From: a virus
Taxonomy: Duplodnaviria; Heunggongvirae; Uroviricota; Caudoviricetes
Reading direction: 5' to 3' (one strand)
IMG/VR virus record: IMGVR_UViG_2529292998_000004
Coordinates: 1-50,094 of that record
DNA: 50,094 bases
Part shown: positions 1-44,952 of the stretch, one piece after another
Layout of the letters: each line of letters starts with the position of its first letter
Position numbering within the stretch: the stretch's first letter is position 1
Position numbers and translations under genes: made by a program
Notes under the pieces: generated by a model
The model's database searches: none
What the model saw: the letters and a program-made list of their open reading frames with translations, nothing else
What the model was told of the DNA's origin: nothing

Positions 1-285
1 TCAATAAATCCCATCATTGCGATCAACCTCATCCTTAACCATTGATGCGAGCAGTTCTTCCAGTTTCTGCGCTGATAGCTTTACCTGGTGATCTTCAGCA
101 TCTTCCCGGGCTATTGTGGTTCGCGCAGTGGCTGATTTTGCTGACATCACCACAGGGGGCAGACGGACCATTGAACCATGGCCTCCGGAACAAATAAGGG
201 CAAAAATAACAACCACTATCGAAAGCTCACAAACTAACCGCAGCACGTTCCTGCATACGACGTGTCTGCGGCATAATCCCAATGA

Positions 286-555
286 TTACTCCCTGACAGG
301 ATTTGCAGGCCACTCAATATCAGGTGCAGTTGATGTATCAACACGATTCAACAATACCCGATATTTATTCCATGCCTCCAGCAACGATCTTTCTTCCTCC
401 GTTGCGATTTCCAGATCTACAGCATCCTGCAGTGGCGCAATATACTCACTGAATTCCTGGATGTAGAACTGTGTGGTGACGGTCTTCCAGCCATTCGGCT
501 CCTGCTGTATCGAAGCATACCAGGCTATTTCAATATCGCTATGCTGCGGCAGCAT
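286..555 (-). pseudogene. Tail fiber assembly protein C-terminal fragment (duplicated 3' part of tfa)
   Basis: 89 aa ORF nearly identical to the C-terminal ~90 aa of the full Tfa at 1335..1919 (shared ...APLQDA(A/V)[40 protein letters not shown]); lacks the N-terminal half. Confidence 0.6.
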
Positions 556-611
556 TTAACCCCTTGTAATTCATCGCCATAATTGATTTAATTCACAAAT
601 AAAACTATAAC

Positions 612-1280
612 ATGGTGAAATCAATGAAAAAAAACACAGATGATGGGGCTAAAATTTACACACCACTTACCCTAAAGCTTTATGACTGGTGGGTTTTGGG
701 AGTATCAAATCGGCTTGCATGGGGATGTCCTACAAAGGAACACCTTCTTCCACACTTTCTGGAACATGTAGGTAACAACCATCTGGATATTGGTGTTGGA
801 ACTGGGTTTTACCTTACTCACGTACCTGAGAGTAGTCTGATATCTTTAATGGATTTGAACGAAGCTAGCCTGAACGCGGCATCTACAAGGGCTGGGGAAT
901 CAAAAATTAAACATAAAATTAGCCATGATGTTTTTGAACCTTATCCCGCGGCGTTACATGGTCAATTTGATTCCATTTCCATGTTTTACCTTCTTCACTG
1001 CCTGCCTGGAAATATATCTACAAAAAGCTGTGTAATACGCAATGCGGCGCAGGCCTTAACTGACGATGGAACTCTATACGGAGCCACAATTCTTGGCGAT
1101 GGAGTTGTGCACAATAGCTTCGGTCAAAAACTGATGCGCATTTACAATCAGAAAGGCATCTTTTCAAACACAAAAGATTCCGAAGAAGGCTTAACACATA
1201 TACTCTCAGAGCATTTCGAGAATGTTAAAACCAAGGTTCAAGGTACTGTAGTAATGTTTTCCGCTTCAGGGAAAAAATAG
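612..1280 (+). CDS. Class I SAM-dependent methyltransferase (cargo gene in the tail fiber locus); alternative start at 624
   Basis: 222 aa ORF with glycine-rich SAM-binding motif LDIGVGTGFYL; AT-rich relative to flanks; opposite strand to phage late genes; no DPPY/NPPY DNA-methylase motif seen. Confidence 0.6.
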   Translation: MVKSMKKNTDDGAKIYTPLTLKLYDWWVLGVSNRLAWGCPTKEHLLPHFLEHVGNNHLDIGVGTGFYLTHVPESSLISLMDLNEASLNAASTRAGESKIKHKISHDVFEPYPAALHGQFDSISMFYLLHCLPGNISTKSCVIRNAAQALTDDGTLYGATILGDGVVHNSFGQKLMRIYNQKGIFSNTKDSEEGLTHILSEHFENVKTKVQGTVVMFSASGKK

Positions 1281-1334
1281 CATCCAACCGCAGCACGTTC
1301 TTGCTTAAGACGTGCTGCGGCATAATCCCAATGA

Positions 1335-1919
1335 TTACTCCCTGACAGGGTTCGTAGGCCACTCAATATCAGGTGCAGTTGATGTATCAACACGGTTCAG
1401 CAACACCCGATACTTTTTCCAGGCTTCCAGCAATGAGGTTTCTTCCTCCGTTGCAATTTCCAGATCTGCAGCATCCTGAAGCGGCGCAATATGCTCACTG
1501 GCTACCTGCATCAGGTTGTTTTTTGTTTCTTCCGCCTCCCGGATCCGGAACAGTTTTTCTGCTTCTGCATCTTTCACCCAGGTTGTGCCGTTCCACTTCT
1601 GAAACTCCCCTTCCGGCGATAACCAGGTAACATTTTCCGGTAATAAGCCGAGTTCAGAAATAAATAACGCGTCGCCGGAAGCTACGTCATAAACCGTTTT
1701 ACCCCGATGATCTTCAACGAGATGCCACGATGCCTCATCACTGTTGAAAACAGCCACAAAGCCAGCCGGAATATCTGGCGGTGCAATATCGGTACTGTTT
1801 GCTGGCAGACCTGTATGAGGCGGAATATATGCGTCACCTTCACCAATAAATTCATTAGTTCCGGCCAGCAGATTATAAATTTTTATGGTCCGTGCTTGTT
1901 CACTCATTCTGAATGCCAT
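1335..1919 (-). CDS. tfa: Tail fiber assembly protein Tfa
   Basis: 194 aa, lambda Tfa-like C-terminus, immediately downstream of stf and overlapping its stop. Confidence 0.85.
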
Positions 1920-4894
1920 TATGCAAGCCTCACAATATAGTTAAATGCGATGTTTTTGACGGTGTTTTCCGCGTTACCAGCAGCGTTAACGGTGATGGTG
2001 TGTCCATGTGAACCAATCGCAACGGAGTGCGTATGTGCACCAATACCTACAGTATGTGCATGTGCGCCAGAACTTGCTGCAGTACCAGACAGCGAGTGGG
2101 TATGAGCACCTGCTGACTGTGTCTGAATACGTTGATAATACGATCTACGGGAAGAAGTCCCCGGGCTTACTTGATACTGTGAATCCTGGACATAAGTGAA
2201 CCCACCGCCATCATAAAATGCTAACGCAGAACCGCCGCCTCCTGGCCAACGAATACCATTACCATGAGTATGATCACCGGCAGACCCCGTAGAGCCACTC
2301 AGACTGTGCGTATGCGCCCCGGTGTTATTCGTGGATTTAGTGCCGTAATCAAACGACGATGTGGTTTTCGTCCCCAAATCCGTACTGGATGCGCTGGCGC
2401 TGTGGGTGTGCGATTTAATGCCGTCCTGTTCCTGAGACAATACGGCTCGATCACTGGCGGGCTTGCCCTTAATCGTCCAGCCACGCATATCAGGGATCAC
2501 GCCTGACGGATAAGCGGCTGCAAGTTTCGGGTATGCAGATTTGTCAAAAGTCTGCCCCTGCATCAGGGCATAGCCAGACGGAACGGTATCTGATGGCCAC
2601 GGGATTGGTGCGCCAGGCGGATAAAACTGCTCTGATGGCGTATAGAGTGAATAAACTGTACCGTCCGTTAACCCTTCCGGCTTATTAGCAGAATATGCTG
2701 GTGACGTATGAATCGTCACGCTGGCATTACTGGTATAATCCCATTGAATATTTACACCAGTCGCATAATTTCCGATTGCAACGTAAATATCGTAAGTATC
2801 ACCAGATGTATTGACCCAGGCAAAATTTGTAAACCCTGTCGATGTGCGCTGCCATAAAGCACCAGTAATCCCCTTCGGATTACCATTACCTGCACGCAAA
2901 ACAAGTTCAGATATACCTGCCTGTTGAGGTGACCCCACGTTAAATCCCGCACCACCAATCAACGTAATTGAAACAACAGAACTCGCCTGTGGCATGGTTA
3001 CCGTTGCTAATTTGAACCAACCAGCACCACCGCTGAATGACATTGTTGTTGAGTTAAGCGTACCAATATCTTTCGGCGTCAGTGTTATATCCGCTGAAAG
3101 CGCCTTACCATTCACCTTACGGGCAGAAGGTACCCGACCATTCGCATTATCATTAGCTGCTTTCACTGCTTTCGGTGTCGCGGCAAGCGTTTCAGATGCG
3201 CTGTTGGTTGCACTACTGAGCTGGACAATTCCTTTTTGTGCTGTCGTAGCGTCCTGAGCAGTATATTTCCCGTTAGCAAGGTCATAGGCTGCCTTTACCG
3301 ACTTTGGCGTTGCCGCCAGCATTTCAGATGTGCTGTTGGTCGCGTTGCTAAGCTGAACTATCCCTTTCTGTGCTGTCGTTGCATCCTGTGCGGTGTATTT
3401 CCCGTTAGCCAGCTCATACGCGGCCTTAACGGCTTTTGGCGTTGCCGCCAGTGACTCGGAAGTGCTGTTAGTCGCACTGCTGAGCTGTACTATCCCCTTT
3501 TTCGTCGTGCTCGCATCCTCAAGCGCCACGGCGGATGCAATATCCTCTGCCCGTTTTGCCGCTGTCTCAGCGCGCGTTGCCGCGGATTCCGCCGTACTTT
3601 TGCTCTGAGCTGCCGCCGTCGCACTGCCAGCTGCCTCTGTCGCCTTCGTGGATGCCGTCGTGGCGCTGCCCTTTGCTGCTGACGCCTGTCTGGTCGCCTC
3701 ATCTTTTGAAGCAGACGCAGATGATGCCGATGACGCCGCCGAACTGGCGGACGATGCGGCAGCCGTTTTTGAGGATTCTGCGCTGGTTTCCGACGCTTTC
3801 GCGTTCGTCTCGGATGTCTTCGCTGCGGAAGCAGACCTCGCTGCTGCGCTGGCCTGTACAGCGGCTTCGCCAGCCTTCGTTGTGGCTGTTGAAGCAGACG
3901 ATGCAGCACTTTCTGCCGATTTTCCGGCGGCGGTGGCACTGGCTGAGGCCTGCCCGGCACTTGTTGACGCGGCACTGGCAGATAATGCAGCCGCTGTTTT
4001 TGAGTCTGCCGCAGCTGAGGCGCTCTGTCCCGCTGCCGTTTCAGAAGACCTGGCGTTCGTCTCGGACGTTTTTGCCGCCTTCGCAGAATTTGCTGCCGCC
4101 GTTGCCGAGGAAGCTGCGCTGCTGGCGCTCGAGGCTGCGTTCGTTTCTGATGATTTTGCCGCCTCTTTTGAAGCCGACGCATCCCGTGCTGAAGTGGCTG
4201 CTTCTGACGCTTTCGTGGTCGCGGTGGATGCAGAAGTGGCTGCTGATTGTTGTGACGCTGCCGCATTCGTTTCTGACGTTTTCGCGGCACTGGCACTGGT
4301 AGCTGCCGCGCTTTTTGAGGACTCTGCAGCGGCAGCACTTTTCGATGCTTCACTGGCCTTTGTTGATGCCGCTCCTGCGCTGGAAGACGCTGACTGAGCC
4401 GACGACGCGGCCTGTCCGGCTGACGTGCTGGCTGCGCGTGCTGAGCCTGCAGCATCAGTCGCATGGGTTGCCGCCTCACGGGCTGATGTGCGGGCATCGC
4501 TGGCTGACTTCTTCGCGGCTGCCGTGTTCTGTGCCACTGCGGACGCGTTACGCGCCACCTCTTCCACCATCAGTTCAAAACGGCGCAGTGCCTCTGGCCG
4601 GACATCATCCTCCGTCATTGCACCGAGGAAATCATTCAGTGTGCCCGGCTTTGAGTCCTCATATACGGTGATAATCCCGGCGTGTGACGGCGGGAATCCC
4701 TCCACCAACAGACTGACGCTGTACTGACCATACTCGACGTCCATTGTATAACGCCCGGCTTCATCCGGATTTTCTGAGGCCACTGTGTTCACCACCACCG
4801 TGGTGCTGTTGCGCCTGGCCTTTAGCTGAATGGTGCAGTTTTGTATCGGCTTACCTGCACCATCTTTCAGTACACCTGAAATCAGTACTGCCAT
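1919..4894 (-). CDS. stf: Side tail fiber protein Stf
   Basis: 991 aa; N-terminus [38 protein letters not shown]... matches lambda Stf from memory; long Ala/Ser/Thr-rich central region; C-terminal His-rich GAHTHS-type repeats and [10 protein letters not shown] end. Confidence 0.9.
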
Positions 4895-4903
4895 ATTCCC
4901 CCC

Positions 4904-4932
4904 ACAAAAAAGCCCGCCTGAACCGGCGGGCT
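4904..4932 (-). terminator. Rho-independent terminator downstream of lom
   Basis: GC hairpin AGCCCGCC..GGCGGGCT followed on the minus strand by a U-run. Confidence 0.5.
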
Positions 4933-4958
4933 GTCATAACACTGTGTTACCTGGCTAA

Positions 4959-5558
4959 TCAGAATTTATAGCCGACACCCACGATGAAACTGTTGGTACG
5001 CCAGTCACCACTGCCGGAGCCTTCATAAGCAATATCAATGGCCACGGATTCGGTCGGGTTAAACTGCACGCCAGCCCCCCACGCCAGAGACGTGTTGCTG
5101 TGGCGACCGTCATCACTTCCGGTCAGCACATCGTGCGTTTTCCCCTTGCTGTCAGTTACACGGAGATAATCCCCGGAAAAAGTCGACACACGACTGTAAG
5201 TCACACCCGCCATCGCATACGCGCTGAACCATTCATTCACGCGCACAGACGGCCCCGCCATCACGCTGAACCAGCGGTTACGCACGGAATCTTCATGCCA
5301 GCGGGTATCGCTGTAATGCGTTTTTTGCTCATCTTTGGCATTGGCATAACTGAATGACGTCACCAGCCCCAGCGTGTCCGTAAACTCATAACGGTATTTC
5401 ACGTTAATCCCGTTCAGATCATCGCTGCCTGGCATATCAGTATGGGTCTGAAGATACCCGGCGCTTAGTGTGGACTGATGCTCTGCTGCGCTCGCTGGCA
5501 TACCAGCGGCAACCAGCCAGACTACTGCGGACAGAATAACAGCACATAATTTACGCAT
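4959..5558 (-). CDS. lom: Outer membrane protein Lom (Ail/Lom family)
   Basis: 199 aa with signal peptide and beta-barrel-like sequence ending GVGYKF; located between J and stf as in lambda. Confidence 0.9.
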   Translation of the reverse strand: MRKLCAVILSAVVWLVAAGMPASAAEHQSTLSAGYLQTHTDMPGSDDLNGINVKYRYEFTDTLGLVTSFSYANAKDEQKTHYSDTRWHEDSVRNRWFSVMAGPSVRVNEWFSAYAMAGVTYSRVSTFSGDYLRVTDSKGKTHDVLTGSDDGRHSNTSLAWGAGVQFNPTESVAIDIAYEGSGSGDWRTNSFIVGVGYKF

Positions 5559-5581
5559 AATTACCTCTCGCTTTTCTGCAA

Positions 5582-5607
5582 TAAAAAAGGCGCCATTTCT
5601 GGCGCCC
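5582..5607 (-). terminator. Rho-independent terminator downstream of J
   Basis: Hairpin GGCGCCATTTCTGGCGCC followed on the minus strand by TTTTTTATT. Confidence 0.5.
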
Positions 5608-5625: not shown

Positions 5626-8600
5626 TCAGCTAATCGTGATGCCTGCAGTGGCTTTCTTCATCACCACAACCAGCAAATCGCTGATACTTGCTGTGGGATA
5701 CCAGTTATTTACCAGCCATGCTGACACCGAAAACTCCAGTGTCATGTGACCGTGACCGGCAGGCATATCAATAACACCACTGTAAATCAGCGTATTATCC
5801 AGCGCGGTACGGTTATAAATTTCAGCACCGTTTTTCCGCACTATCAGACGGCATGAGGAGTAAATATCAGTATGCTCTTTCTCATGTTTAGCGCCGCTGA
5901 ATGCCACCGCCGGAATAACAATCTGCCGGTCAAACGGCTGATCGTCATAAACCCTGACGGTAATGGTTCCTGATGGCCACCGCTCCGGTGCACGGGAGTC
6001 CCGGGGGAAAGCTTTGCCCACTGTTTTAACGAGATCGCCTTCAATCTGGTTCGCGGACAATTTTCCCAGAACCCGACAGTTCTCGTTAATCGTGACGTTG
6101 TTGAGCGTCCCGGAGTTCGCATTCACGTTACCGCTGATATCGGCATTTTTCGCCGTCAGCCGCCCGTCCGGTGTCAGGGAAAATGCCGGAGGATTACCGC
6201 CGCTGGTAATGGTGGGAGCCGTCAGATATTTCAGGAACACTTCATTCATAAATATCTGATCGCCCTGACCAACAAACATCGGCTTTGTGTTGCCATTCGC
6301 AGGATTAATCATCGCAATCCTGTCTGCCGCCAGCAGCACCTGACTCTGCATTCCTGCTGGCGTATTCTCAATACCGGCACCGATACCCGCAATATAAAGG
6401 CGTCCGTCCTGCATCTGCTGCAGTTTCACGGCCCACATGCTGTTCAGGTTATTATTTGTATCAACCTGAACCTTCTGTATCTGCTGGATTGCCGCACTCT
6501 GGTCTTTCAGTTTCTTATTGACAGTCTGCGTGATTTCATTGCTGACATCCGTAATGGACGTCCTGATTTCAGCCAGGTCAGGCGCAAGCTGACCGTTATC
6601 AATCTGCGTCCACAGCTCCTGAGCCAGATGGGTTTTCCCTATCTCGCCTTTGAAAAAATCCAGATAACCGGATGCATCATCACTCGGCTGACCAACAGCC
6701 TCCACGAATGCCGATTTGCCAACGGTGTTCACACTGCGAACGTAAAAATAATAATCATGGCCCGGTTTGATATTGATACTGGCGGCTATCCAGTACAGCC
6801 CCGTGCCAAGATAGCGCGCTGTGGTTTCAACCTTCCTGATATCGGTAATCCGCTTTTCCGAAAACCAGAACTCAAACTGTACCGTCGGGTCATAAACGGC
6901 AAGATGCGGCGTGGCGGTTATCTGAAAATAGCCCGGCGTCAGCTCAATCCGCGACGGCGCTGCCGGTGCGGCAATCCGGAACGATACCGACGCCGGATCG
7001 CCCTGCTGTCCCCACGCATTTACCGCCCGGACCGTCAACATGTAACGCCCCAGCGCCAGCTGCCTGAAGCGGTATGTGGTTTCCGTCGTCCGGGCCGTGC
7101 TGACCAGCCGCTCACTGCCATCGTCCGCTGTCACGGTCAGGCGAAGCAGGAAGCTCACGCCCTTCACCACCTTCGGCGTGTCCCATTTCGCCTGCGCCAG
7201 ATACTGGCCGTCAGCTGCGCTCACCTCCACCGTCAGGTGCTGCACTGCCGGTGGGATGACGCTGTTCAGGGAACCTGACTGCGGCTCAAAGCGGGCACCG
7301 TTATCCACGATGGCTTCTTTTTCCGGTACGTGCTGCACCGCCGTGATGGCAAAGGTGCCGTCCGTGTTTTCCCGGACGGAGACACAGCGGAACAGGCGAC
7401 GGCGCAGTGACGGCAGGGAGAGTCCCCACACCCCGTATGTCTCCACACCATCAGGCAGGGTACTGACCTGTATCCGGTCCGGCGCGGGGTGTTCGGTGAT
7501 GTCCACACTCACTGGCTTACCGCTGCCGTTAATCAGGTTCACCGTGGCGGCACCGGTCTCCGGAAGTGTCACTTCACGGTCCAGCGTCAGGGTGCGGGTG
7601 GCAGCATCAATGGACAGGACACGTCCGCCGGTCAGGGTCCCGGCATAGTCGTTATCACAGATTTCAATGATGTCACCGGGTGTGTGCCGCAGCCCCTGAG
7701 ACCCGAGCGTGAAATCCACCGTCTGCGTTTCCAGCAGTTCGGTCTTTATCACCCACAGTCCGGCACGGTGGGCCTGACCGCGGCTGGTACAGCCGAACGC
7801 GTCCATCTTCAGCAGGTTGCGTCCGTAGCGCAGTATGGCTTCCGGGTCTTCCACCAGTTCCGTGGAGGTCTGCCAGCCGTTCTGCGGGTCGGTGTAATTC
7901 ACCTCCACCGCCGTGTGCCGGTCCTTCAGGGCACTGAAGCTGTAGCGGAATCCCACGCCGTTATCATCCACCACCACATCGCTGTTGGTGTACGGCCACA
8001 CCACATCCGACGGGCGGTCCTGAACGAACGTCAGCGTCTGACCGTTCCATACCGGCATACAGCGCATCGCAGAGCAGAAATCACTGAGAACGTCCCACGC
8101 CTTACGCTGTTGTGCCAGGTACGCATTAAAGGTCATCCGCGGCTCGGTCCCCCCGAAACCATCCGGGACCGTCTGATCGCAGTACTGCCCGATGGCATAC
8201 AGCGCCCACTTGTCCACATCCGCCGCCCCCAGACGTTTTCCCATGCCGTAGCGCGGGTGAGTCAGCATGTCCCACAGGCACCAGGCCGGGTTGTTGCTGT
8301 ATGCCGGTTTCAGACTGCCGTCCCAGATACCACTGTACGTGCGTTTTTCCGGGTCATAGTTTGACGGCACCTGGATGATACGACCGCGGATATGGTAGTT
8401 CACCGTCATCTGCTGGCCGCCGAACTGCTCCGCATCCACCTGCAGCCCCACAATGGCCGTGTTCGGGTAGCACTGTTTCACATCGATGATTTCGGTGTAT
8501 GACGACCACAGCGTCTTATTCTGCAGCTGGTCCGTGGTGCTGTCCGCCGTCTCCCTGACCATCCGGATGTTAAAGGGCCGGGGAGGCAGATTATCCAGAA

Positions 8601-9102
8601 TCACCGAGGCCAGGAACTGTGAGGTGGTCTTGCCGTTAATGGTGACGTCCTTTTCTGTCACCCAGTTACCGTTACGCTGTAACTGAATCAGCAGGCGGAC
8701 GGTTGCCGGGTTACGGTCACCCTTTGAGGTGGTCTCCACCAGTGACTGCACCCCGAAGGTAACCCGCAGGCGGTCAATGTTCGCGGACGTAATGGTGCGC
8801 GTCACCGGTTTTGCCTTCGTCACTTCCACGCCCAGTCCGGTTTCAGCTCCGGAGGACTCAAAGCCTTCCGGTGGTGTCTGCTCCTGCTCCCCGGCACGCC
8901 AGACCGCGGTCACACCGTGTATCACGGGATTACCGTCCGTGTCCGTCAGCGGGGTTTTGTTCACCAGAATACTCTGCAGTCCCTTCACCGGACCTTCTAT
9001 CGGTCCCTCACCAATCGCATCAATCACACTCATCATCTGCGTGGATTTGAGATTATCCTTCGCCTCACGAGGCGTGTGTGCCTTACCGCCACCTTTTCCC
9101 AT
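5626..9102 (-). CDS. J: Tail tip host specificity protein J
   Basis: 1158 aa; N-terminus [22 protein letters not shown]... and overall length as lambda J. Confidence 0.95.
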
Positions 9103-18792: not shown

Positions 18793-18849
18793 AAATCAGT
18801 TCCTTTCATTAAGAAATCAGTCAGGCCAACGCGGTGGCCTGATAACGTG

Positions 18850-19197: not shown

Positions 19198-19233
19198 ATT
19201 GTTAAAACCTCGTATTGATGTTCAGCACTGACT

Positions 19234-32531: not shown

Positions 32532-32623
32532 TCCTGAAAAAATCGGGCGGTGGGTGCGCGGTGTAAACGGTCACGGAGTCAAACCGGAACACCGCGCACG
32601 CCGCCCGCTGACGGGGTCAGTCG

Positions 32624-33424: not shown

Positions 33425-33469
33425 TTGTTCTCTCCGTTACAGGCGGGCATGATGCCCGCCGTGAGTTGA

Positions 33470-34522
33470 TTAGCTGTCGGCGAACTTCAGGCCAGTGACC
33501 ATCGCGCACTTGCCATAGTCTTCAACGACATAAGCGTCATTGATGGACTGGTAGGTGGCGATGCGGTTGTATTCCGGCTCGTCTTTCATCAGGCGACGCA
33601 TTGAACCTTTCTGCCAGTAAATCGACAGGTTGTTGAACGAGGTGATCAGCATCGTTGCATCCGGGAAGAACGGCGCAAGGAACACGCCCAGCCCGCCAAT
33701 GGTGCGCGATGACAGGATGAGCTGCCCGGCAAGTAATTCCGCATTGGGATTCTGGCCGCTGATGCTGTTCAGCACGGGCAGACGCAGCGAGTTAAACAGG
33801 TTGCGCCCCATAATCACCGCGAGGTCGTCAGCTTCCTTGTGCCATTCATCCAGCAGGGATGAGCGCGCATCCTGTACCAGAGCATCGGCATTCGCATACT
33901 TACCCGCGTGCGCCACAGTGTTGTCCATGTTGCGGGAGGTCAGCGTCACGTCATTCATTACGCGCTCGCTGGCATCGGTTCTGATGTGCTCCAGCCAGCC
34001 CACGTTAACGTCCTGAAGCAGCTTGTTGGTGTGAAAATCAGACTCGTAGGCGTGGGATGTGCCGTTAAAGCCAATCATGATGCGATCAAGCGCTACCTGC
34101 CGGGCGATCTGTGTACTGATACGGGACTGAAAATCGCTGTGGGCCGCCCAGGTATCAAGCTGTGGGTACGAAATAAAGGTATCGTAGTTCACCTGTTCGC
34201 ACTGGTACTGACGAGACTTCATATCGATCACGTTATTCGGGTTACGGCGTTTGATGCCGTCATAACTGCTATTCGTGCGCGCAATTGGCCCGGTGGTGTC
34301 CAGGAGGATTTTTTCGCCTTTCTGGTCGGTCACGCCGATCACGTTAATTCTTTTCGTAAATTCGGTACTTTCCTTTGAGGCGTTTTCAAAACGCTGCTGC
34401 ACCGCGGGTTCCACGGTAAATCGCGATACCAGTGCAGATACCGGGATATTGTTAAGCGACGCCTGCTGCGCCATATAGCAACCCAGCTTGTTGCGGGTAA
34501 TATCTGACATCACCAGATTCAT
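33470..34522 (-). CDS. P2 gpN-like major capsid protein
   Basis: 350 aa; ..FTVEP.V.Q........S.EF..RINV..V.....GEKI.., ..PADAMLITK/PDATMLITSF.NLSIY.., ..YVVEDY.. blocks as P2 N. Confidence 0.9.
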   Translation of the reverse strand: MNLVMSDITRNKLGCYMAQQASLNNIPVSALVSRFTVEPAVQQRFENASKESTEFTKRINVIGVTDQKGEKILLDTTGPIARTNSSYDGIKRRNPNNVIDMKSRQYQCEQVNYDTFISYPQLDTWAAHSDFQSRISTQIARQVALDRIMIGFNGTSHAYESDFHTNKLLQDVNVGWLEHIRTDASERVMNDVTLTSRNMDNTVAHAGKYANADALVQDARSSLLDEWHKEADDLAVIMGRNLFNSLRLPVLNSISGQNPNAELLAGQLILSSRTIGGLGVFLAPFFPDATMLITSFNNLSIYWQKGSMRRLMKDEPEYNRIATYQSINDAYVVEDYGKCAMVTGLKFADS

Positions 34523-34545
34523 AAAAAATTTGCTCCTTTGTCTTA

Positions 34546-35382
34546 TCAGAAGTCAGCCAGCTGGTCGGAGGCTGCGCCCGTTGCGGTGAAGCGGTTCTGC
34601 GGATCGCCGTCCTGCGTGTGCAGTTTTTCCTTCAATGCTGTCAGCTCTGTGGTCAGTGACGTGATTTTCTGGCGGTCCTGCTGATGGCGGGTTTCCAGCA
34701 CATTAAAACGGTCGATAATGTCGGCCTGTGACGTTGCAACGCCTTCCACCGCTTCCTGAATTCGGGAGAAACTGGCGTCATCCGCTTTGCGGCCACGACC
34801 AATAATCCCCATTACGCGGTTAAACCACTGGGTGCCTTCTTCCTGGCGTTGTTCTGCCATTTCGATGATTTCAGACTCGATGGCTTCGGAGATAAGCGGT
34901 GCTTCACCCTGGATACTGTTGAACGTCATCACCGCCTGACGTTGCTGTGCCGTGAATTTCAGGCGCTCAGTGCCCAGGCTTGCCGGGGTGTCGGTCATCG
35001 CCAGCCCGACCAGATAGGCGCGCCCGTTAACGGAGAACTGCGGGTGCAGTTCGATACTGGAATAGATTTTCTTGCCGTCAGCGACAAGCTGCTTCATGCG
35101 CTCGGTCGGTTCGATTTCTGCATACAGCGCAGTACGTCCGGCCAGCGGGCCTTCCGTAATATCTTCCGTACTCAGCGCGGTGACATCGCCCATTGCGGAA
35201 AATTCGCTTGACGGGCATGGCGAGAGATAGTGCTCAACGTTCACGCGGGCAGCGTAAACATCCGGGTTGAAGTTCTCGGCGGCTTCACGCAGATGTACCT
35301 GGCTGATTTCGCGGCCATCAACAGTTGATCCGGAGACAGCCACGCGAAACTTTTTGCGGGATGTCTTTTTTTCATTAGCCAT
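34546..35382 (-). CDS. P2 gpO-like capsid scaffolding protein
   Basis: Start MANEKKTSRKKFRVAV.. preceded by GAGGGG RBS; ..YLVGLAMTDTPASLGTE.LKF.. as P2 O. Confidence 0.85.
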   Translation of the reverse strand: MANEKKTSRKKFRVAVSGSTVDGREISQVHLREAAENFNPDVYAARVNVEHYLSPCPSSEFSAMGDVTALSTEDITEGPLAGRTALYAEIEPTERMKQLVADGKKIYSSIELHPQFSVNGRAYLVGLAMTDTPASLGTERLKFTAQQRQAVMTFNSIQGEAPLISEAIESEIIEMAEQRQEEGTQWFNRVMGIIGRGRKADDASFSRIQEAVEGVATSQADIIDRFNVLETRHQQDRQKITSLTTELTALKEKLHTQDGDPQNRFTATGAASDQLADF

Positions 35383-35536
35383 AGTTTTTGCCCCTCTGAC
35401 TGGTTCTTCAGTCATGATGGCAAAGCGTAACAGGCTGATACAAAGGGCTTTTGTTGTAAGAAAACGGCCAGAACAGGGGGTTAAGGAGAACGGTTTCGCG
35501 CGCGGGTAATCTTCCTGTAATTACTCAGGGGGAGCA

Positions 35537-37288
35537 ATGATTCAGGACGCTTTTGTGCGCCAGCGTGCGCGGCAACTTTACTGGCAGGGTTATCCGCCCG
35601 CAGAAATATCACGTCTGATGGGAATAAACCCGAACACGATTTATGCGTGGAAAAAACGCGACCAGTGGGATGAAACGCCACCCGTGCAGCGTGTCACGCA
35701 GTCCATCGATGCGCGCCTCATCCAGCTTACTGAAAAACAGAATAAAACAGGCGGTGACTTTAAGGAAATAGACCTGCTGACCCGGCAGCTTAAAAAAATG
35801 CATGATGGCCAGCCGGATGCGACGGCCACAGGAAAGAAAGGTCGGGCGAAAAAACTCAAAAATCATTTCACGCCGGAACAGATTGCCGCACTGCGGGAAA
35901 AAATCATCAGCAGGCTGGAGTGGCATCAGCGGGGCTGGTTTGACTCCCTGACCCTTTGCAGGGAAGCCGGGATACGTAACAGGATGATCCTGAAATCCCG
36001 ACAGATTGGCGCGACCTGGTATTTTGCACAGGAAGCACTGCTGATGGCGCTGCGTGACGATGTGGCGCAACCTTACCAGCGTAACCAGATTTTTTTGTCT
36101 GCGTCGCGTCGTCAGGCGTTCCAGTTTAAAAGCATTATTCAGAAGGCCGCGGCTGAAGTTGATGTGGAGCTGAAAGGGGGCGATAAAATCATCCTCTCCA
36201 ACGGCGCAGAGCTGCATTTTCTCGGCACTTCTGCTGCGTCGGCGCAGTCCTATACGGGCAATTTTTATTTTGATGAATTTTTCTGGGTCAGTCGCTTTGC
36301 TGAACTGCGCAAGGTGGCTGGCGCTATGGCAACCCTCAGCGGATTGCGGCGCACCTACTTCTCCACGCCATCCACCGAAACGCACGAAGCATACGCCTAC
36401 TGGAACGGCGACCGCTGGAACGAGAAAAAGGCCACGCATAAACGCCAGCGTTTTTCTGTGGACTGGAAAACGCTGCATAACGGGCTTATCTGCCCTGACC
36501 GGACGTGGCGGCAAATTGTCACGCTGGAAGATGTGGTTAATCACGGCTGGAAACACACCGATATCGACGAAATTCGTGATGAAAACACCGAAGACGAGTT
36601 CCTCAATCTCTATATGTGTGAGTTTGTCCGCGAAGGGGAATCGGCATTTAACCTGAATATCCTGATTGGCTGCGGTGTTGACGGATACGACGACTGGAAA
36701 GACTGGAAACCTTTTGCTCCCCGCCCGATGGGGAATCGTCCGGTATGGATTGGGTATGACGCAAACGGCAGCAGTGGCAACGGCGACAGCGGCGCTGTAT
36801 CCGTGGTGGTTCCTCCGGCTGTTCCTGGTGGCCGTTTTCGAACGGTGGAGACGCGACGCGTTCAGGGGCTGGAGTTTGAAGAACAGGCCAGAGTCATTGA
36901 AGAGTTCACGTGTCGCTACAACGTGGAACACATCGGCATTGATGTGACGGGCGGGAACGGGGAGGCTGTTTATCAGATAGTGAAACGGTTTTTCCCTGCC
37001 GCTATTCCGTACACCTTCACGCTGTCATCAAAACGGTCGCTGGTACTGAAAATGCTGCAAATAATGCGTGCCGGGCGGTGGGAATACGATCGCGCCGAAC
37101 GCGAGCTGGTCGCGGCCTTTAACGCCGTGCGTAAGGTGAAAACACCGGGCGGCTTTATCACTTACGAAACGGACCGTGCGAGGGGGATCAGCCACGGCGA
37201 CCTTGCGTGGGCAACCATGCTTGCTGTCATTAACGAACCGATTGGCGGCGAAGGAGAAAACGAGCGTTTCACGGTTATGGAGTTCTGA
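35537..37288 (+). CDS. P2 gpP-like terminase large subunit (ATPase)
   Basis: 583 aa, divergent from O; ATGA overlap with Q start. Confidence 0.9.
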   Translation: MIQDAFVRQRARQLYWQGYPPAEISRLMGINPNTIYAWKKRDQWDETPPVQRVTQSIDARLIQLTEKQNKTGGDFKEIDLLTRQLKKMHDGQPDATATGKKGRAKKLKNHFTPEQIAALREKIISRLEWHQRGWFDSLTLCREAGIRNRMILKSRQIGATWYFAQEALLMALRDDVAQPYQRNQIFLSASRRQAFQFKSIIQKAAAEVDVELKGGDKIILSNGAELHFLGTSAASAQSYTGNFYFDEFFWVSRFAELRKVAGAMATLSGLRRTYFSTPSTETHEAYAYWNGDRWNEKKATHKRQRFSVDWKTLHNGLICPDRTWRQIVTLEDVVNHGWKHTDIDEIRDENTEDEFLNLYMCEFVREGESAFNLNILIGCGVDGYDDWKDWKPFAPRPMGNRPVWIGYDANGSSGNGDSGAVSVVVPPAVPGGRFRTVETRRVQGLEFEEQARVIEEFTCRYNVEHIGIDVTGGNGEAVYQIVKRFFPAAIPYTFTLSSKRSLVLKMLQIMRAGRWEYDRAERELVAAFNAVRKVKTPGGFITYETDRARGISHGDLAWATMLAVINEPIGGEGENERFTVMEF

Positions 37289-38334
37289 TGAGCAGAAAAA
37301 ATAAAAAAGTGCGCATGAGTTCACGCATTGATCTCGCTGATGCGCTCAGGAAAGAATCATCGCTCAGTGCATTCACATTTGATGGTCCTTATCGCCTGAC
37401 CGGGCATGACCTGCTGGACAATATGTACTGTGCTGATAACGGGCGGTGGTATGAAACCCCGGTGGACTGGTACGGTCTGGCAAGAGCTGCCCGGCAAACG
37501 TCCTGGCATCAGTCTGCGCTTTACTTTAAGCGCAATGTATTACTCGGTTGCTACATCCCGCACCCGTTGCTTTCCCGGCAGGATTTCTCGGCGCTGGCGC
37601 TGGACTGGTTTGTGTTCGGTAACGCATTCCTTGAGCTTCGAAGCAATATGCTCGGCGAACCGCTTAAATTACGGCACGCCCTGGCGAAATACATGCGACG
37701 CGGAAGCGATCTTGAATCATGGTGGTATGTGCAGGATGGCAAGGACGCGTTTCAGTTTCGCCCTGGCAAAGTGTGCCACCTGATGAATCCTGACATTAAC
37801 CAGGAAATCTACGGCATGCCGGAATATCTCGGCGCATTACTCTCGGCCAGCCTGTCTCATTCGGCGGACATGTTCAGAAAACTGTATTACGACAATGGAT
37901 CCCACGCCGGGTGCATCATCTACATCGGTGCAGCGCAGGTAAACCGCGAAAGCATGGACTCCCTGAAAGAAACGCTACAGGGGGCACGTGGTGGTGGTGC
38001 GTTTAAAAACGTGCTCATTCATGCGCCTAACGGGGGCAAAGAGGGGGTGCAAATTTTGCCGTTCCAGCAGATCACCGCAAAGGATGAGTTCATGAATGTT
38101 AAGGCGGCATCCCGTGATGATGTGCTGGCTGCGCACCGCGTTCCGCCGCAACTGATGGGGGCGATGCCGGGCGAAAAAAGTGCGTTTGGTGATGTGGAGA
38201 AGGCCGCGCGGGTTTACGCAATTAACGAGCTGATGCCCGTCATGGAGGCCATGAAGCACATCAATGACTGGCTTGGCGAAGAGGTGATCCGCTTTAACCC
38301 TTACGCACTGTTAGACACCCTGCCCACATCCTGA
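37288..38334 (+). CDS. P2 gpQ-like portal protein
   Basis: 348 aa, downstream of P, size and position as P2 Q. Confidence 0.9.
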   Translation: MSRKNKKVRMSSRIDLADALRKESSLSAFTFDGPYRLTGHDLLDNMYCADNGRWYETPVDWYGLARAARQTSWHQSALYFKRNVLLGCYIPHPLLSRQDFSALALDWFVFGNAFLELRSNMLGEPLKLRHALAKYMRRGSDLESWWYVQDGKDAFQFRPGKVCHLMNPDINQEIYGMPEYLGALLSASLSHSADMFRKLYYDNGSHAGCIIYIGAAQVNRESMDSLKETLQGARGGGAFKNVLIHAPNGGKEGVQILPFQQITAKDEFMNVKAASRDDVLAAHRVPPQLMGAMPGEKSAFGDVEKAARVYAINELMPVMEAMKHINDWLGEEVIRFNPYALLDTLPTS

Positions 38335-39604: not shown

Positions 39605-40180
39605 TCACTCTCCTTTGATGCCAATGTTTACAGACTGGCAAGCCTCTTTGAGCACCCAGTCAACAGCGTCTTTCCATGCTCCGGTTTCGACTGGCGGATT
39701 CTCACGCTTTACCTGTTCATAGAAACGCACCGCTCTAACCAGTCCATCTGACGGTTTTGCCTGTAGTGCAGCCTGAGCTATGCGGTATGCCTGGAGCATA
39801 CGGGCGTCGTTGGCTTTTTTGCGGTTGATGTTGGCTATGTCCGGCTGTGCGTTTGTGTCGAAATACTCGCTCAGTGGCAGGGTGACAACCACATCCACCT
39901 CCTGTGGCGTGATGCCTGATTTGACCAGCGCGTGATGAATGGCAATGACATTCACATCGCTGTACTGGTATTGCGTGTCAGTCGTCTGGACAAAGCGATC
40001 GCTGACCGGATCAAAACCATAGCGCACGCCATCAAGCATGTAGTTCGCGGGCTGCGTGCCACCGAACGGCGCAGACCATTCCGACTTGAAGCTGTTCGGG
40101 CTGATGGCGTTGCGGCGTTCGCCGTTCTCAGTCCATGCCAGCTTGGTGTTGGTGGAGCCGTCATCGATACAAATTTTCAT
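39605..40180 (-). CDS. ParM/StbA-like actin-fold ATPase N-terminal domain protein (191 aa, truncated relative to ParM)
   Basis: MKICIDDGSTNTKLAW...ISPNSFK.EW...FG.....Y.L.G..Y.FDP.S...V.TT....QYSDVNV.A.HHAL..SG....EVD.V.TLPL.EY.D.N.QP...NI.RKKAN closely tracks the N-terminal ~140 aa of plasmid R1 ParM as remembered; remainder unrelated. Confidence 0.6.
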   Translation of the reverse strand: MKICIDDGSTNTKLAWTENGERRNAISPNSFKSEWSAPFGGTQPANYMLDGVRYGFDPVSDRFVQTTDTQYQYSDVNVIAIHHALVKSGITPQEVDVVVTLPLSEYFDTNAQPDIANINRKKANDARMLQAYRIAQAALQAKPSDGLVRAVRFYEQVKRENPPVETGAWKDAVDWVLKEACQSVNIGIKGE

Positions 40181-40211: not shown

Positions 40212-40320
40212 TTTACGGGATTCTGAAATCCCGTTTTTGCCTGTTTTATGCGCGCTTCATATATCGCGGCGCGTTTTTTGCTCATTTACGGGATTTGTGA
40301 ATCCCGTTTCTGTCTGTTTT
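40212..40320. repeat. Two ~36-bp direct repeats, each containing a hairpin (ACGGGATT..AATCCCGT), flanking the stop codon of gene A
   Basis: TTTACGGGATTCTGAAATCCCGTTTTTGCCTGTTTT at 40212..40247 and TTTACGGGATTTGTGAATCCCGTTTCTGTCTGTTTT at 40285..40320. Confidence 0.6.
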
Positions 40321-43079
40321 TTGTTTCCACTGGTCAGGCCACCCCGCAGCAGGTCTGCTTTGCGGCGGGCGCGTTCAGTGGTTTCACTGATTCTCTGTGC
40401 GTGCTCTGCGTCGCGGATGGCGCGCAGCATGTCAGAAAGCACGGTAACGGGTGTTTTCATGGTGTTCTGGTCTTGCTGAAGTGTGGATGCCAGGCGTGCG
40501 GCGGCTTCGGGGTCTGATGCCCTCAGCTGTTCCAGATAGCTGGCGACCGGGTTATGGCGGATCTCCGTACTGCTTACGCCGTGGTTACGGCTCAGGCGCT
40601 GCCAGAGCTGCGTGATCCGGCTGTCCGGTCGGGTATCCGGTTTGCGTACAATTTCAAATCCCTGCGGTGCAATGATGCTGCCGTCAACGTACAGACTGCC
40701 GCCCCGTAACAGGTGCTGCATCTGCTGTTCACCGATATGCAGGCCGAGAGATTCGGCAGATTCCCGCCATTCTTTAGCGAGTAATTCGTGGTTATCAGGC
40801 AAAGGCCGCTGCTGTTTGCGGCTCTGTGTCCAGCTCTGCATTTCATCACTGCTGTTTTTTGCCTGTTTGTCACGAAGCGAACGCATCAGCGCCCGGCGTT
40901 CGTGCCGTTTCAGTGAGCGCATCCATTCGTTCACGTCAACGCCGTCAGGAAGCTGCGGCCACGGTGCTGGCCGTTCTTCCGGCTGTTCTGTCCCGTTGTT
41001 GTCCGTTTCCTGTACACGGGGACAGTTATTGCCACGAGTCCAAGGGGCGGCAGGGCCGCCCTGAAGGTCAAAACCATTTTCGTGGGCGTTGTCTTCTGGT
41101 TCTGGTTTACGTCTTACCAACTTCCAGTTATCCGGATGCGTGCACACACGGGAGGATTCCCCGATGAGTGGTGACCAGATCCCGTAAATCTGTACGCTCT
41201 GTTCGCCGTAATCGTTCAGCTCATCTGCGAGGTCGTAGGCGGTGCGAATCAGGTAGTCCTTGCGTGGAACAAGCGCGCCACCCTGTTTTTCAATGTAGGT
41301 GGCAAAACACCCGGCATCGGCGGCAGCGAGTACCGCATCCATTGCATCATCTTTCAGCCGTTGCGGGCCTTCCGGATTGCGTGCCATCTGGCTGGCAAGG
41401 CGGCGCAGTTCACGCCACACCTGACGGGAGGGGATGCCAAAGAACTGGAACTGACGGACCCGGTGAAGGCGCGCCCAGCCGATGGCGCGCTCCACGCTCT
41501 CGGCCATTGATTTTCCGGTTTCGTGGTCAACGCGTGGCTTGCCCGTTTTCGGGTCGATGCCATCCACGGCGCGGCTGTCCAGGTTCTTTCCGATGTAGGT
41601 GGCGATGTAGCTGGTTGGTGTGCCTTTTGAGCCGTCGACATACTCCGCCTTAAAACGCGGAGTTATGTCATCGCCCAGCTCGTGGCGGTCCTCCTGAATG
41701 GCAATATCGCAGACGTGGGACACGATGGTTTCAATCTCGTCCGGATGTGCAAAGACCATCATATGCCAGTGCACAGTGCCGTCATGGTGAGGCTCCACCG
41801 TGCGGATGCCATACCAGCGCAGGCCGTCGCGGTTCAGTTTTTTGCGGACCGCCGCAAAAAACGTGTTAACCAGGTAATCGCTAGAGTCGCGCATGGTGGC
41901 CCCGTTCCATTTGGGGTTCGGATGACCGTTCTCCGTTGTTGCGTGGTATTTTGACGGGCAGGTAACGGTCAGAAACACCGCTCTGTCGCTACGGGCTTCG
42001 GCCAGAAGTTCCAGTCCCTTCATGGTGGCCATCATTTCTGCCTTACGGTGAACCGGGTTACTTACTCCCGCGTAATACACTGTCTCGAGATCAATCGTGA
42101 ACCCGTCTTCATTTTCCAGCATGAAACTTTTCAGGAAATCGCGTGTTTTCTCGCGCTGTGCGCGAAACTCGCTTAACGCGTCCTGGCTCAGATAGGGCGA
42201 TGTTTTTCTGGAAACCAGACAGGCGGCGCGGAGTTGTTCTTCCCGCCACTCGCAACGTAACAGCCACAGTTTGCGTTTCCACCATTCCGCACAGGTCAGG
42301 CGAAGGATTGCGCCCGGCAGCAGTTCTGTGTCCGGTTCGTTCCTCCGGTCTTTGTCTGTTGTCAGTGCGTCATAATGCGGAGGCATGGCGTGCAAGTGTA
42401 ACGCCATGCGGGCTAGCATCTGATACGCCTTCAGCGTTACATCCATGGTCAGCTCGCCATCAGTCGCGCCAAAACCATCGCAGAGTTTTTCGAAGGTGCT
42501 GCTGAACATCGCCGCCGTCATGGTGGCCAGCGTCTGTATCTGGTGTTTGTTGAGTTGCGGCAGGTAAAGCAAATCGTCCAGGCGTTCGCGTCCGGCAAGG
42601 GACCGATAACCCGGTGTCAGCCAACGGCTGTCGGTGCGGTCCAGACGTACGAATATTTTGCGCAGGGTTCCGCGCGCGTAGCGTTCAGCCTGCCAGCTCT
42701 TTTTGCCTTTCTGGCGATCGGCTTCCTGTTTTTTGCGCAGGAAGGAGAGGTGGCGAATAAGCGGATCGCGCAGATAGGACGGCAGCAGGCGCAGCGAGGC
42801 CATGGCTTCATCCACCGCGCCGCGTGCCTGTTTTCTGGCGTCTCCTGCCAGTGTGATGGTTTTGTCCTGTTTTTCCTGTGCGTCCAGGTTTTTATTAATC
42901 AGGTTGCCCAGCGGCGTTGCGGAGAACGCCGCATCAGCCATTTCCTGGCGGCGCTCGTTCTCTGCCCGGTAGGCATCCAGCCAGGAGGAAAGCGCGGATT
43001 CAGGTGCGGGGATCCCCGTTCCTTCACGCCCCACTGCGTGGCGCGGTTGTTGCCAGTCCCTGATGTACTCTGCCGTCAT
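40257..43079 (-). CDS. P2 gpA-like replication initiation endonuclease (HUH rolling-circle Rep), 940 aa
   Basis: HUH motif (..GTVHWHMMVFAH..) and paired active-site tyrosines (..SYIATYIGKN..). Confidence 0.8.
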   Translation of the reverse strand: MTAEYIRDWQQPRHAVGREGTGIPAPESALSSWLDAYRAENERRQEMADAAFSATPLGNLINKNLDAQEKQDKTITLAGDARKQARGAVDEAMASLRLLPSYLRDPLIRHLSFLRKKQEADRQKGKKSWQAERYARGTLRKIFVRLDRTDSRWLTPGYRSLAGRERLDDLLYLPQLNKHQIQTLATMTAAMFSSTFEKLCDGFGATDGELTMDVTLKAYQMLARMALHLHAMPPHYDALTTDKDRRNEPDTELLPGAILRLTCAEWWKRKLWLLRCEWREEQLRAACLVSRKTSPYLSQDALSEFRAQREKTRDFLKSFMLENEDGFTIDLETVYYAGVSNPVHRKAEMMATMKGLELLAEARSDRAVFLTVTCPSKYHATTENGHPNPKWNGATMRDSSDYLVNTFFAAVRKKLNRDGLRWYGIRTVEPHHDGTVHWHMMVFAHPDEIETIVSHVCDIAIQEDRHELGDDITPRFKAEYVDGSKGTPTSYIATYIGKNLDSRAVDGIDPKTGKPRVDHETGKSMAESVERAIGWARLHRVRQFQFFGIPSRQVWRELRRLASQMARNPEGPQRLKDDAMDAVLAAADAGCFATYIEKQGGALVPRKDYLIRTAYDLADELNDYGEQSVQIYGIWSPLIGESSRVCTHPDNWKLVRRKPEPEDNAHENGFDLQGGPAAPWTRGNNCPRVQETDNNGTEQPEERPAPWPQLPDGVDVNEWMRSLKRHERRALMRSLRDKQAKNSSDEMQSWTQSRKQQRPLPDNHELLAKEWRESAESLGLHIGEQQMQHLLRGGSLYVDGSIIAPQGFEIVRKPDTRPDSRITQLWQRLSRNHGVSSTEIRHNPVASYLEQLRASDPEAAARLASTLQQDQNTMKTPVTVLSDMLRAIRDAEHAQRISETTERARRKADLLRGGLTSGNKKQTETGFTNPVNEQKTRRDI

Positions 43080-44121: not shown

Positions 44122-44952
44122 TTACTTCACCGGAACAAACGGAACAGCGGTGTTACTGGTCATGTATTGCGGTAGCGTGCCGTTCCATTTGTTAATCGCT
44201 TCCAGCTCCATAACGCCGGGATTCTGGCGCAGAGCTTCGCCGCGTAAACGAATGGCGTCGGCTTCAGCCTGGGCTTTTGTGCGAATGGCATCGGCTTGTC
44301 CGGCAGCTTCTGCGCGCAGCATGTTGGCTTCAGCTTCGCGTTGCTTGACTTCCTGTTCACGTTGCAGGGTTTTCTGGTTTGCCGTGACTTTGGCGTTAAT
44401 GCTGTCGATAACGGTTGGCGGATATTCCGGTTTACCGACATAAGAGAGGCTCATGACCTGAATACCGATGGGGGTCATTTCTGCCTGAATATCTTTAAGT
44501 GCTGAATCCAGCAGTTCAGACTTACCACCGTCGATAAACTTATCGGTGGTCATTTTGCTGGCCAGTCGGTTGAGTGCATCGGCGATCTTCTGGCGCAGGT
44601 CAGTGTCGGTAATGTCGTCCACGCCTTTGCGGTAGGTCTGAAACACCGTGGTAACTTTGGATGGATCAACTTTGTAGGCCACGCCGATGTGATAGCCGAT
44701 GGTTGTGCCGTCACTCATCTGAAAGCTGAACGGCTCATCGTAGGTCTTCATTTGTTTGAAGGTCGGGAAGATGTAAACCTCGGTATTCCAGCCAGTCCAG
44801 TAGCGACCAACGCCAACCACTTCGCCAACGCCTTTGTCGTCGCCCAGCTTGTTGACTTTGATGCCCATATTACCTGGCTCAACGCGATCGCAGCCAACCA
44901 GCAGGATGGCGGCAAAAAGCGGGAGAATCTGAAAGAGTCTGAATTTCTTCAT
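44122..44952 (-). CDS. SPFH/band-7 (prohibitin-like) domain lipoprotein
   Basis: 276 aa; lipoprotein signal MKKFRLFQILPLFAAILLVGC; SPFH-like core; C-terminal coiled-coil rich in Ala/Glu/Gln. Confidence 0.75.
   Translation of the reverse strand: MKKFRLFQILPLFAAILLVGCDRVEPGNMGIKVNKLGDDKGVGEVVGVGRYWTGWNTEVYIFPTFKQMKTYDEPFSFQMSDGTTIGYHIGVAYKVDPSKVTTVFQTYRKGVDDITDTDLRQKIADALNRLASKMTTDKFIDGGKSELLDSALKDIQAEMTPIGIQVMSLSYVGKPEYPPTVIDSINAKVTANQKTLQREQEVKQREAEANMLRAEAAGQADAIRTKAQAEADAIRLRGEALRQNPGVMELEAINKWNGTLPQYMTSNTAVPFVPVK

Follow-up and report, generated by a model that had tools for sequence, protein, structure and literature searches.

The DNA analysed here, a window of 50,094 nucleotides (nt) from a virus of the Caudoviricetes (IMG/VR record IMGVR_UViG_2529292998_000004), carries near its left end the methyltransferase gene ybcY, which lies between two copies of the 3' end of a tail fibre assembly gene, tfa, in a prophage of lambdoid type. 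We favour, with a probability of roughly 0.78, the interpretation of ybcY as a moron, that is, as cargo expressed by the lysogen and encoding a methyltransferase of the small-molecule or lipid type, placed in a slot between tfa and a conserved hairpin that follows the tail genes. The finding is real, already known and ordinary, and on nucleotide comparison the locus is that of ybcY in prophage DLP12 of Escherichia coli K-12 (tfaD-ybcY-tfaX, b0561-b0563), which is already annotated, the arrangement therefore not being new. The E. coli comparison set consisted of 5426 complete genomes.

Structure and origin of the ybcY insertion

The complete tfa gene (1335..1919, minus strand, 194 amino acids (aa)) encodes a full-length member of the Tfa family, spanning positions 1-130 of the 131 in the Caudo_TAP profile (E=4.8e-44) and matching phrog_105, and its DNA is 92% identical to that of lambda tfa. 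The 3' end of this gene, together with the hairpin beyond it (copy B, 1286..1511), is repeated in direct orientation on the other side of ybcY (copy A, 236..462). When aligned as one block, 236-462 and 1286-1511 are identical in 201 of 227 columns (88.5%) with a single 1-nt gap, and a repeat finder returned the same repeat in two parts, 266-462/1315-1511 (197 nt, 89%) and 236-264/1286-1314 (29 nt, 90%). A previous sequence-only reading of the window had described direct repeats of about 85% identity at 241-480 and 1290-1530; these are real, but their homology ends some 20 nt earlier, at approximately 451-462 and 1500-1511, and they code for the last 55-59 or so residues of Tfa, about 30% of the protein, and not for its C-terminal half. 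Each copy opens, as that reading had also observed, with the same palindrome, located at 238-271 (CCGCAGCACGTTCCTGCATACGACGTGTCTGCGG) and at 1288-1320 and following the pattern CCGCAGCACGT...ACGTG(T)CTGCGG.

The left copy is found within an open reading frame (ORF) of 89 aa (286..555, minus strand), the counterpart of tfaX of K-12, in which codons 1-34 (454-555) belong to another gene, here called X, and codons 35-89 (286-451) to the C-terminus of Tfa. Accordingly, the Caudo_TAP match is confined to profile positions 75-130 (ORF residues 31-86), so that the ORF is not a Tfa member as a whole protein, and phrog_3893 matches residues 3-37; the Prokaryotic Genome Annotation Pipeline (PGAP) calls it a pseudogene. 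Because X is intact in a Citrobacter-type contig whose homology to the window starts at 469, the left copy of tfa is, as judged from the alignments, a chimera of the 5' end of X and the C-terminus of Tfa and not a plain duplicate. At this left joint, hereafter X'::tfa', codon 34 of X is fused to codon 140 or so of tfa, with patchy microhomology at 445-462 (copy A, ...CTCACTGAATTCCTGGA...; tfa, ...CTCACTGGCTACCTGCA...; X, ...GCTCAGTTCCTGGA...); copy A is thus tfa-derived up to about 451, and 452-462 corresponds to the junction microhomology. Illegitimate recombination has probably left this chimera behind as a scar. IS009 (RF02111), an Rfam family for a candidate small RNA of E. coli, matches the tfa coding sequence at 1378-1576 (minus strand) end to end with 225.7 bits and the X'::tfa' chimera at 329-532 (minus strand) with 112.5 bits, just below the threshold of 117; it was rejected as a small RNA at tfa, as the family appears to model, more simply, the DNA of the tfa gene or pseudogene.

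The module enclosed by the repeats (452..1287, plus strand) is composed of the 5' end of X (X'), a divergent promoter spacer and ybcY. A homologue from Citrobacter freundii (P0004), with 90% aa identity to YbcY, is encoded on the Citrobacter-type contigs L020 and L018, whose homology to the window is confined to positions 469-1292, at 91.8% identity. In this setting, which has neither tfa nor the hairpin, ybcY is divergent from an intact gene X of 80 aa, and X is followed by a gene weakly resembling S24 peptidases (UmuD-type); likewise, in Klebsiella phages X precedes an ORF whose likeness to UmuD was read from its sequence. Gene X itself (PHROG 3893, 79-80 aa, conserved, no Pfam match) lies at 791-1033 (minus strand) in contig L020 and at 3004-3243 (plus strand) in the Klebsiella phage sequence L017, in each case directly upstream of the UmuD-type gene. 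The right joint of the module lies 8 nt past the ybcY stop codon, at five nucleotides, CCGCA (1288-1292), that the hairpin has in common with the native sequence. The outcome is a direct duplication of about 216-227 bp, comprising the 3' end of tfa and the hairpin, around an insert of about 835 bp.

Alleles devoid of the module also exist. An artificial query corresponding to the deletion product gave a single-piece match in NZ_CP043406 and NZ_CP048934, in which the gene order is trp-yciGFE-ompW'-DUF4376'-hairpin A-full tfa-stf-lom-J, without ybcY and without a tfa fragment; in both of these inspected genomes the prophage occupies the same ompW/yciE site as the filled type. With a junction query of 552 nt, which cannot span the cassette, 20 complete genomes with the same type of prophage were found, each by a single-piece match, to have the left flank and hairpin A joined directly to a full-length tfa, versus 1113 genomes with the tfa'-ybcY-tfa arrangement. 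The left flank common to filled and empty alleles is the remnant of a tail-fibre-type gene with a DUF4376 domain (1..189, minus strand), which extends past the window start, matches phrog_7703 and phrog_1141 and is a pseudogene in the PGAP annotation of NZ_AP022177. In the empty alleles the hairpin and roughly the initial 100 nt are of A type and the remainder mostly of B type, and the mosaics differ between the two genomes inspected. Since the empty sites, the native context and the chimeric left copy agree, the segment from about 452 to 1287 is, on these comparisons, an insertion. The proposal of the sequence-only reading that a cargo cassette had been acquired by recombination at the tfa 3' end is thereby upheld, and the comparison of related tfa loci that it had suggested as a check did return a presence/absence polymorphism.

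Distribution of the ybcY locus

Positions 309-1773 of the window align contiguously to DLP12 of K-12 at 96.8% identity, and within this region the ybcY segment is 98.9% identical over 728 of 730 nt. The annotation of MG1655 lists tfaD (b0561), ybcY (b0562, as a pseudogene) and tfaX (b0563), followed by appY, ompT and envY, and the record of phage PhiR68_2 labels the same gene 'YbcY'. The two loci share gene order and orientation, the X'::tfa' joint, hairpin B and the promoter hexamers. They differ in that, in K-12, ybcY is frameshifted, tfaD is truncated at the 5' end, and tfaX, without its last codons and without hairpin A, is joined to the appY-ompT region, whereas in the window both ybcY and tfa are intact, copy A extends past the stop codon as far as hairpin A, and the site occupied is that at ompW and not that of DLP12.

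The DNA of ybcY is present in 3836 of the 5426 genomes (71%), in one to four places each and amounting to about 4900 copies. All copies examined, namely those of K-12 DLP12, O157, phages Turner, PhiR68_2 and 2G7b and the window, carry the X'::tfa' joint, and the joint, the spacer, ybcY and hairpin B are shared among them at 97-99%. The right neighbour varies: a complete tfa in the window and in strain 55989; the 5'-truncated tfaD in K-12; a tfa stub of 120 bp joined to a different fibre module in phage 2G7b; ynaE and pin, and then tfa, in phages Turner and PhiR68_2, whose homology to the window extends as far as 1320, where the hairpin ends; and yciGFE-katN, followed by tfa, in O157. On the left side, homology is lost at 309-331 in K-12, Turner, O157 and 2G7b, and hairpin A and the tfa' stop codon are retained in the window type alone. 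A decay product is seen in phage Ayreon, where ybcY is internally deleted and a stub of tfa, the hairpin, a piece of X' and roughly 40 nt from the end of ybcY were kept. In O157:H7 FRIK2455 (L005, 5223-7436), the cargo located between tfa and the hairpin of ybcY was observed to include a second set of the stress genes yciG-yciF-yciE and a manganese catalase gene.

The hairpin and the cargo slot

Hairpin B (1288..1320) is positioned between convergent genes, 8 nt past the ybcY stop codon and 14 nt past that of tfa, and is a candidate for a terminator shared by both. Its predicted folding energies are -23.9 and -28.5 kcal/mol (z -4.8 and -4.4), and those of hairpin A are -18.8 and -24.1 kcal/mol, in both cases far better than shuffled sequences. 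Hairpin A (238-271) and the 24 nt flanking it constitute an element (214..271) to which 156 phage records have matches of 80-91% identity. For three phages, HK97, lambda and one Stx2a phage, this element was checked to lie behind tfa or close to a prophage end. In HK97 the order is tfa-hairpin-sib-attP; in the Stx2a phage a gene for an NleG effector is located between the tail end and the hairpin, which is near the prophage end; and lambda (NC_001416) has two copies, one right after tfa (~22573-22606) and the other at 24161-24219. The hairpin recurs in these three genomes, as aligned, as a conserved element of the tail-gene (tfa) end and is not specific to tfa.

The distal copy of lambda is identical to hairpin A in 34 of 34 positions, and between the two copies lies ea47, on the strand opposite to tfa. 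The lambda b-region thus shares with the ybcY locus a gene that runs opposite to tfa and ends near the tfa hairpin, as well as a second hairpin with its flank on the far side; it differs in that the cargo is the unrelated ea47 (410 aa) and that only the hairpin is repeated, with no duplication of tfa coding sequence. Because the geometry of ea47 is the same as that of ybcY, the space between tfa and the terminal hairpin behaves, at the level of gene order, as a general cargo slot. The ybcY unit ends exactly at the end of hairpin B in Turner and PhiR68_2 and at most 6 nt away (q1326) in O157. The simplest reading of the hairpin is that of a conserved terminator of the tail block, presumably active in termination, which supplies a short patch of homology.

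Lambdoid prophages of O157 reportedly possess 'exchangeable effector loci', with cargo downstream of tail-fibre genes. These loci and that of ybcY have in common the location of the cargo between the tail-fibre genes and the prophage end, but YbcY is an enzyme of cytoplasmic type and not a secreted effector, and ybcY is far more widespread, as indicated by its presence in 71% of the genomes.

YbcY and its expression

The ORF 612..1280 (plus strand), in which the sequence-only reading had recognised an AT-rich, oppositely oriented methyltransferase gene, scores above the Pfam gathering cut-offs for four families of S-adenosylmethionine (SAM)-dependent methyltransferases, Methyltransf_12 (37.5 bits, cut-off 30), Methyltransf_23 (29.0, 27), Methyltransf_25 (27.7, 27) and Methyltransf_11 (24.6, 21.2). 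This assignment, for which a profile search had been recommended, stands, with an AT richness that is modest (41.4% GC in the insert) and a start that is probably displaced: because all 29 aligned homologues begin at the fifth codon of the ORF, the true start of ybcY is probably ATG 624, giving a product of 218 aa (624..1280) in place of the 222 aa counted from ATG 612. Residues D59, G61, G63 and G65 (DIGVGTG) and D81, invariant in 30 sequences, correspond to the motif I loop and to the acidic residue of strand 2. The AlphaFold2 model and the fold searches display the seven-stranded alpha/beta arrangement of class I enzymes, and we are confident that YbcY adopts, as modelled, a Rossmann methyltransferase fold; SAM binding and methyl transfer are predicted.

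YbcY belongs to PHROG 2132, whose function is unannotated. Its family is represented in Enterobacterales, Aeromonas, Shewanella and Pasteurellaceae at 55-90% identity, with about 60 invariant positions that include DIGVGTG, D81, HD106, FDS...YLLHC and an N-terminal YDWWVL..SN..AW.C.T motif, the latter without a match to a characterised family. The ratio dN/dS between ybcY and three homologues is 0.11-0.21, and the gene, by this codon comparison, is under purifying selection. The solved structures matched by the model are small-molecule methyltransferases, namely JHAMT (7ec0), a phosphatidylethanolamine N-methyltransferase (8ys9), MM_2633 (3dtn), BelI (9fce) and RebM (3bus), at 10-21% identity. 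Sequence searches of the PDB returned only JHAMT and UbiG (E 1e-3 with the sequence alone and 5e-6 with a profile), NCBIfam gave sub-threshold matches only, to CpaM, RquA and PmtA (16-18 bits versus cut-offs of 175-390), and PADLOC returned nothing meaningful; from none of these is a substrate transferable. The combination expected of a DNA methyltransferase (N6A, N4C or C5), a methylase profile with a (D/N/S)PP(Y/F) or PC motif and a target-recognition domain, was not detected, in agreement with the sequence-only reading, which had not taken the protein for a DNA methylase. YbcY, as modelled, resembles small-molecule and lipid methyltransferases and not DNA methylases. We suggest, with low confidence, that it modifies or detoxifies a small metabolite, a lipid or a xenobiotic to the benefit of the lysogen. 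The literature on ybcY and tfaX yielded table entries only (a SELEX promoter, an H-NS flag, the ompT neighbourhood and the absence of a Hha phenotype) and no phenotype of ybcY was found there; a search for morons and methyltransferases returned nothing relevant. Genes for alpha/beta-hydrolases or carboxylesterases were observed near ybcY or its homologues in contexts from Enterobacter, Erwinia, phage 2G7b and O157 (L008, 7584-8414; L013, 4281-5813; L002, 2342-3736; L005, 1-1061), which may be a coincidence or may hint at a pair for methyl-ester formation and hydrolysis.

Between the divergent X' and ybcY lies an AT-rich putative promoter spacer (556..623, 27.9% GC), in which sequence reading and a consensus scan point to TTGATT-17-TATAAC at 583-611, a second sigma-70-like site at 556-583 and a GGTGA 5 nt before ATG 624. 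A genomic SELEX (systematic evolution of ligands by exponential enrichment) study with RpoD lists the same hexamers for the ybcY side of the ybcY/tfaX spacer of K-12, flags this spacer for H-NS, and also lists a promoter directed at tfaX (PMC3946193).

Interpretation of the locus

Taken as a whole, the segment fits, by its composition and arrangement, the moron as reviewed from the comparison of the lambdoid phages HK97 and HK022 (PMC3594210). As in that description, the DNA is extra with respect to collinear relatives, being missing at the same position from the two inspected alleles of the ompW site, in the ratio of 20 empty to 1113 filled genomes, with lambda and HK97 also devoid of ybcY; its composition is deviant (41.4% GC in the insert versus 47.7% in tfa, 54.7% in stf and 56.9% in J, the whole window having 53.5%); and it is located at the edge of the tail operon with a promoter-like sequence of its own and a 3' hairpin. 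It differs from the classic description in that the hairpin is borrowed from tfa, the native module having none, and in the duplication of 216-227 bp and the chimeric ORF. The putative promoter is represented by the hexamers and by the SELEX signal in K-12, but without enrichment in the scan, and the hairpin is shared with tfa.

Regarding the history of the locus, we hypothesize that the X'::tfa' joint arose once, by illegitimate recombination. The likeliest route would be the replacement of a resident tail-fibre module by one with ybcY downstream, leaving behind the 3' end of the resident tfa. Homologous recombination within tfa and hairpin sequences would then have carried the unit from one lambdoid prophage to another, and the same repeats would permit its precise loss, accounting for the rare empty alleles. 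In the lysogen, ybcY would be transcribed from its own AT-rich, H-NS-bound sigma-70 promoter, with transcription ending at the shared hairpin, and the enzyme would have as its substrate a lipid or small molecule, from the host or from its environment.

Several observations weigh against this interpretation. In K-12, ybcY is a frameshifted pseudogene, and the gene is consequently dispensable in the laboratory. The claim of a single origin is drawn from about eight contexts, and not from all 4900 or so copies. The structural matches of YbcY form a flat list at low identity from which no substrate class is transferable, and the chromosomal homologues (in Enterobacter, Salmonella, Erwinia, Citrobacter and others) stand alone among unrelated neighbours, with no operon partner. 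The predicted promoter-like sites are at the level of shuffled sequences (three versus 3.9 expected in the consensus scan), and the -10 hexamer abuts ATG 612, leaving a leader of about 5 nt before ATG 624. Hairpin B was not recognised by the terminator scan because, on the ybcY strand, it is not followed by a T-run. Finally, the direction of the polymorphism may, from the alleles compared, run either way, because both a deletion between the repeats and a later filling of an ancestral empty site predict, equally well, the observed A/B mosaics.

An ancestral locus with two tfa genes, for instance alternative chaperones that allow a switch of host range, as in the invertible G, C and P segments of Mu, P1 and e14, would make the methyltransferase a mere neighbour. 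The window does hold two Tfa-related ORFs, both open, and in Turner and PhiR68_2 a Pin-type invertase gene lies between tfa and ybcY. However, in the second ORF Tfa contributes only its last 55 or so residues and an unrelated gene the N-terminus, PGAP annotates this ORF as a pseudogene, and in K-12 an internal stop interrupts it; moreover, the existence of empty alleles contradicts an ancestral pair, the repeats are direct and not inverted, the sole inverted pairs in 1-2400 having arms of 13 nt, a size expected by chance, and the ORF list contains no invertase in 1-5600. We consider such an origin extremely improbable, and an invertible tail-fibre segment of the Mu G, P1 C or e14 P type was rejected on account of the direct repeats and the lack of a nearby invertase. 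That the repeat persists owing to selection on the 89-aa chimera as a functional small protein, similar to TfaX, is unlikely. In its favour, the reading frame is uninterrupted and has an ATG that immediately follows a stop codon, the match to phrog_2341 covers the full length (88 of 88 positions), and MG1655 lists tfaX as a coding sequence towards which the SELEX table has its second promoter; against this stand the pseudogene call and the internal stop of K-12 mentioned above, and the truncation of the 3' end of the chimera in K-12, Turner, O157 and 2G7b, where homology begins at 309-331. The codon differences between copies A and B (11 synonymous and 8 non-synonymous) are uninformative on present constraint.

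Another alternative concerns the hairpin itself, which might be a recombination site, with ybcY, ea47 and effector genes as alternative fillings. In Turner, PhiR68_2 and O157 the edge of the ybcY unit coincides with the hairpin to 6 nt or less (homology ending at 1320-1326); the hairpin also flanks lambda ea47 on both sides, with one copy identical to hairpin A throughout, and recurs in the 156 phage records. Nevertheless, no recombinase is linked to it, the other junction of the cassette falls inside coding sequence, the cargo has its joint within the 3' end of tfa in O157 and Turner (homology resuming at q1356-1357), and an operon-end terminator combined with ordinary short-homology recombination explains the pattern. 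A hairpin-specific mechanism is therefore very unlikely. The same low expectation applies to its bolder form, in which the palindrome of 34 nt and its flank of 24 nt would act as a portable recombination joint that renders ybcY, ea47, NleG-type effectors and yciGFE-katN interchangeable through a phage or host function; if this were true, the prevalence of ybcY would reflect mobility at the joint as well as a fitness benefit of small-molecule methylation in lysogens. As to the substrate, the possibility that YbcY acts on nucleic acid or protein, as an orphan DNA or RNA methyltransferase in anti-restriction, epigenetic control or tRNA modification, is improbable, given that neither profiles nor fold comparisons gave evidence for a nucleic-acid methyltransferase.

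Under the moron interpretation, which we retain, the locus corresponds to the textbook moron located downstream of tail-fibre genes. It also illustrates, as a clear and datable case, how short conserved homologies (the tfa 3' end and the terminal hairpin), together with an illegitimate joint, enable a single cargo unit to spread across many prophages and to be lost from them. With up to four copies per genome, ybcY ranks with the most widespread cargo genes in prophages of E. coli, and it is maintained by purifying selection across Enterobacterales.

Other features of the window

The minus strand of region 1-5600 represents the end of a lambdoid tail operon, in the order J, lom, stf and tfa. 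The tail gene J (5626..9102, minus strand) is followed by lom (4959..5558, minus strand), located between J and stf, and by the side tail fibre gene stf (1919..4894, minus strand, 991 aa), upstream of tfa, which was identified from the ORF list and from the PGAP annotation 'prophage tail fiber' in matching genomes. The first 2 kb of the window are 99-100% identical to many E. coli chromosomes, with 100% identity to NZ_AP022177, in which the matching segment is the end of a prophage at ompW, beside yciE and the trp operon, and the junction between prophage and ompW' is about 0.3 kb to the left of the window start. In NZ_AP022177, identical over window positions 1-2000, insertions of the IS66 family were observed in stf and in a tail gene (18294-20719 and 28455-31070); stf of the window is intact, so that the window derives from another strain.

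At 32000-45000, genes of the P2 family adjoin lambdoid lysis and late genes. They comprise the capsid gene gpN (33470..34522, minus strand), the scaffold gene gpO (34546..35415, minus strand), the terminase gene gpP (35537..37288, plus strand), a short portal ORF (37288..38334, plus strand) and the replication gene gpA (40257..43079, minus strand), and the P2-like segment further includes genes for a ParM-like protein (39605..40180, minus strand) and a Band_7 protein (44122..44952, minus strand). With P2-family and lambdoid genes as neighbours, the window thus resembles either a lambdoid prophage and a P2-like element in tandem or a composite of the two. Inside the P2-like segment two Rfam families match above their gathering scores on the minus strand, the C4 antisense RNA at 43811-43898 and isrK at 43934-44008. 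Close to the lysis genes, a protein of 627 aa (28699-30582, minus strand) contains DUF1737, SASA (sialate O-acetylesterase) and DUF6645 domains.

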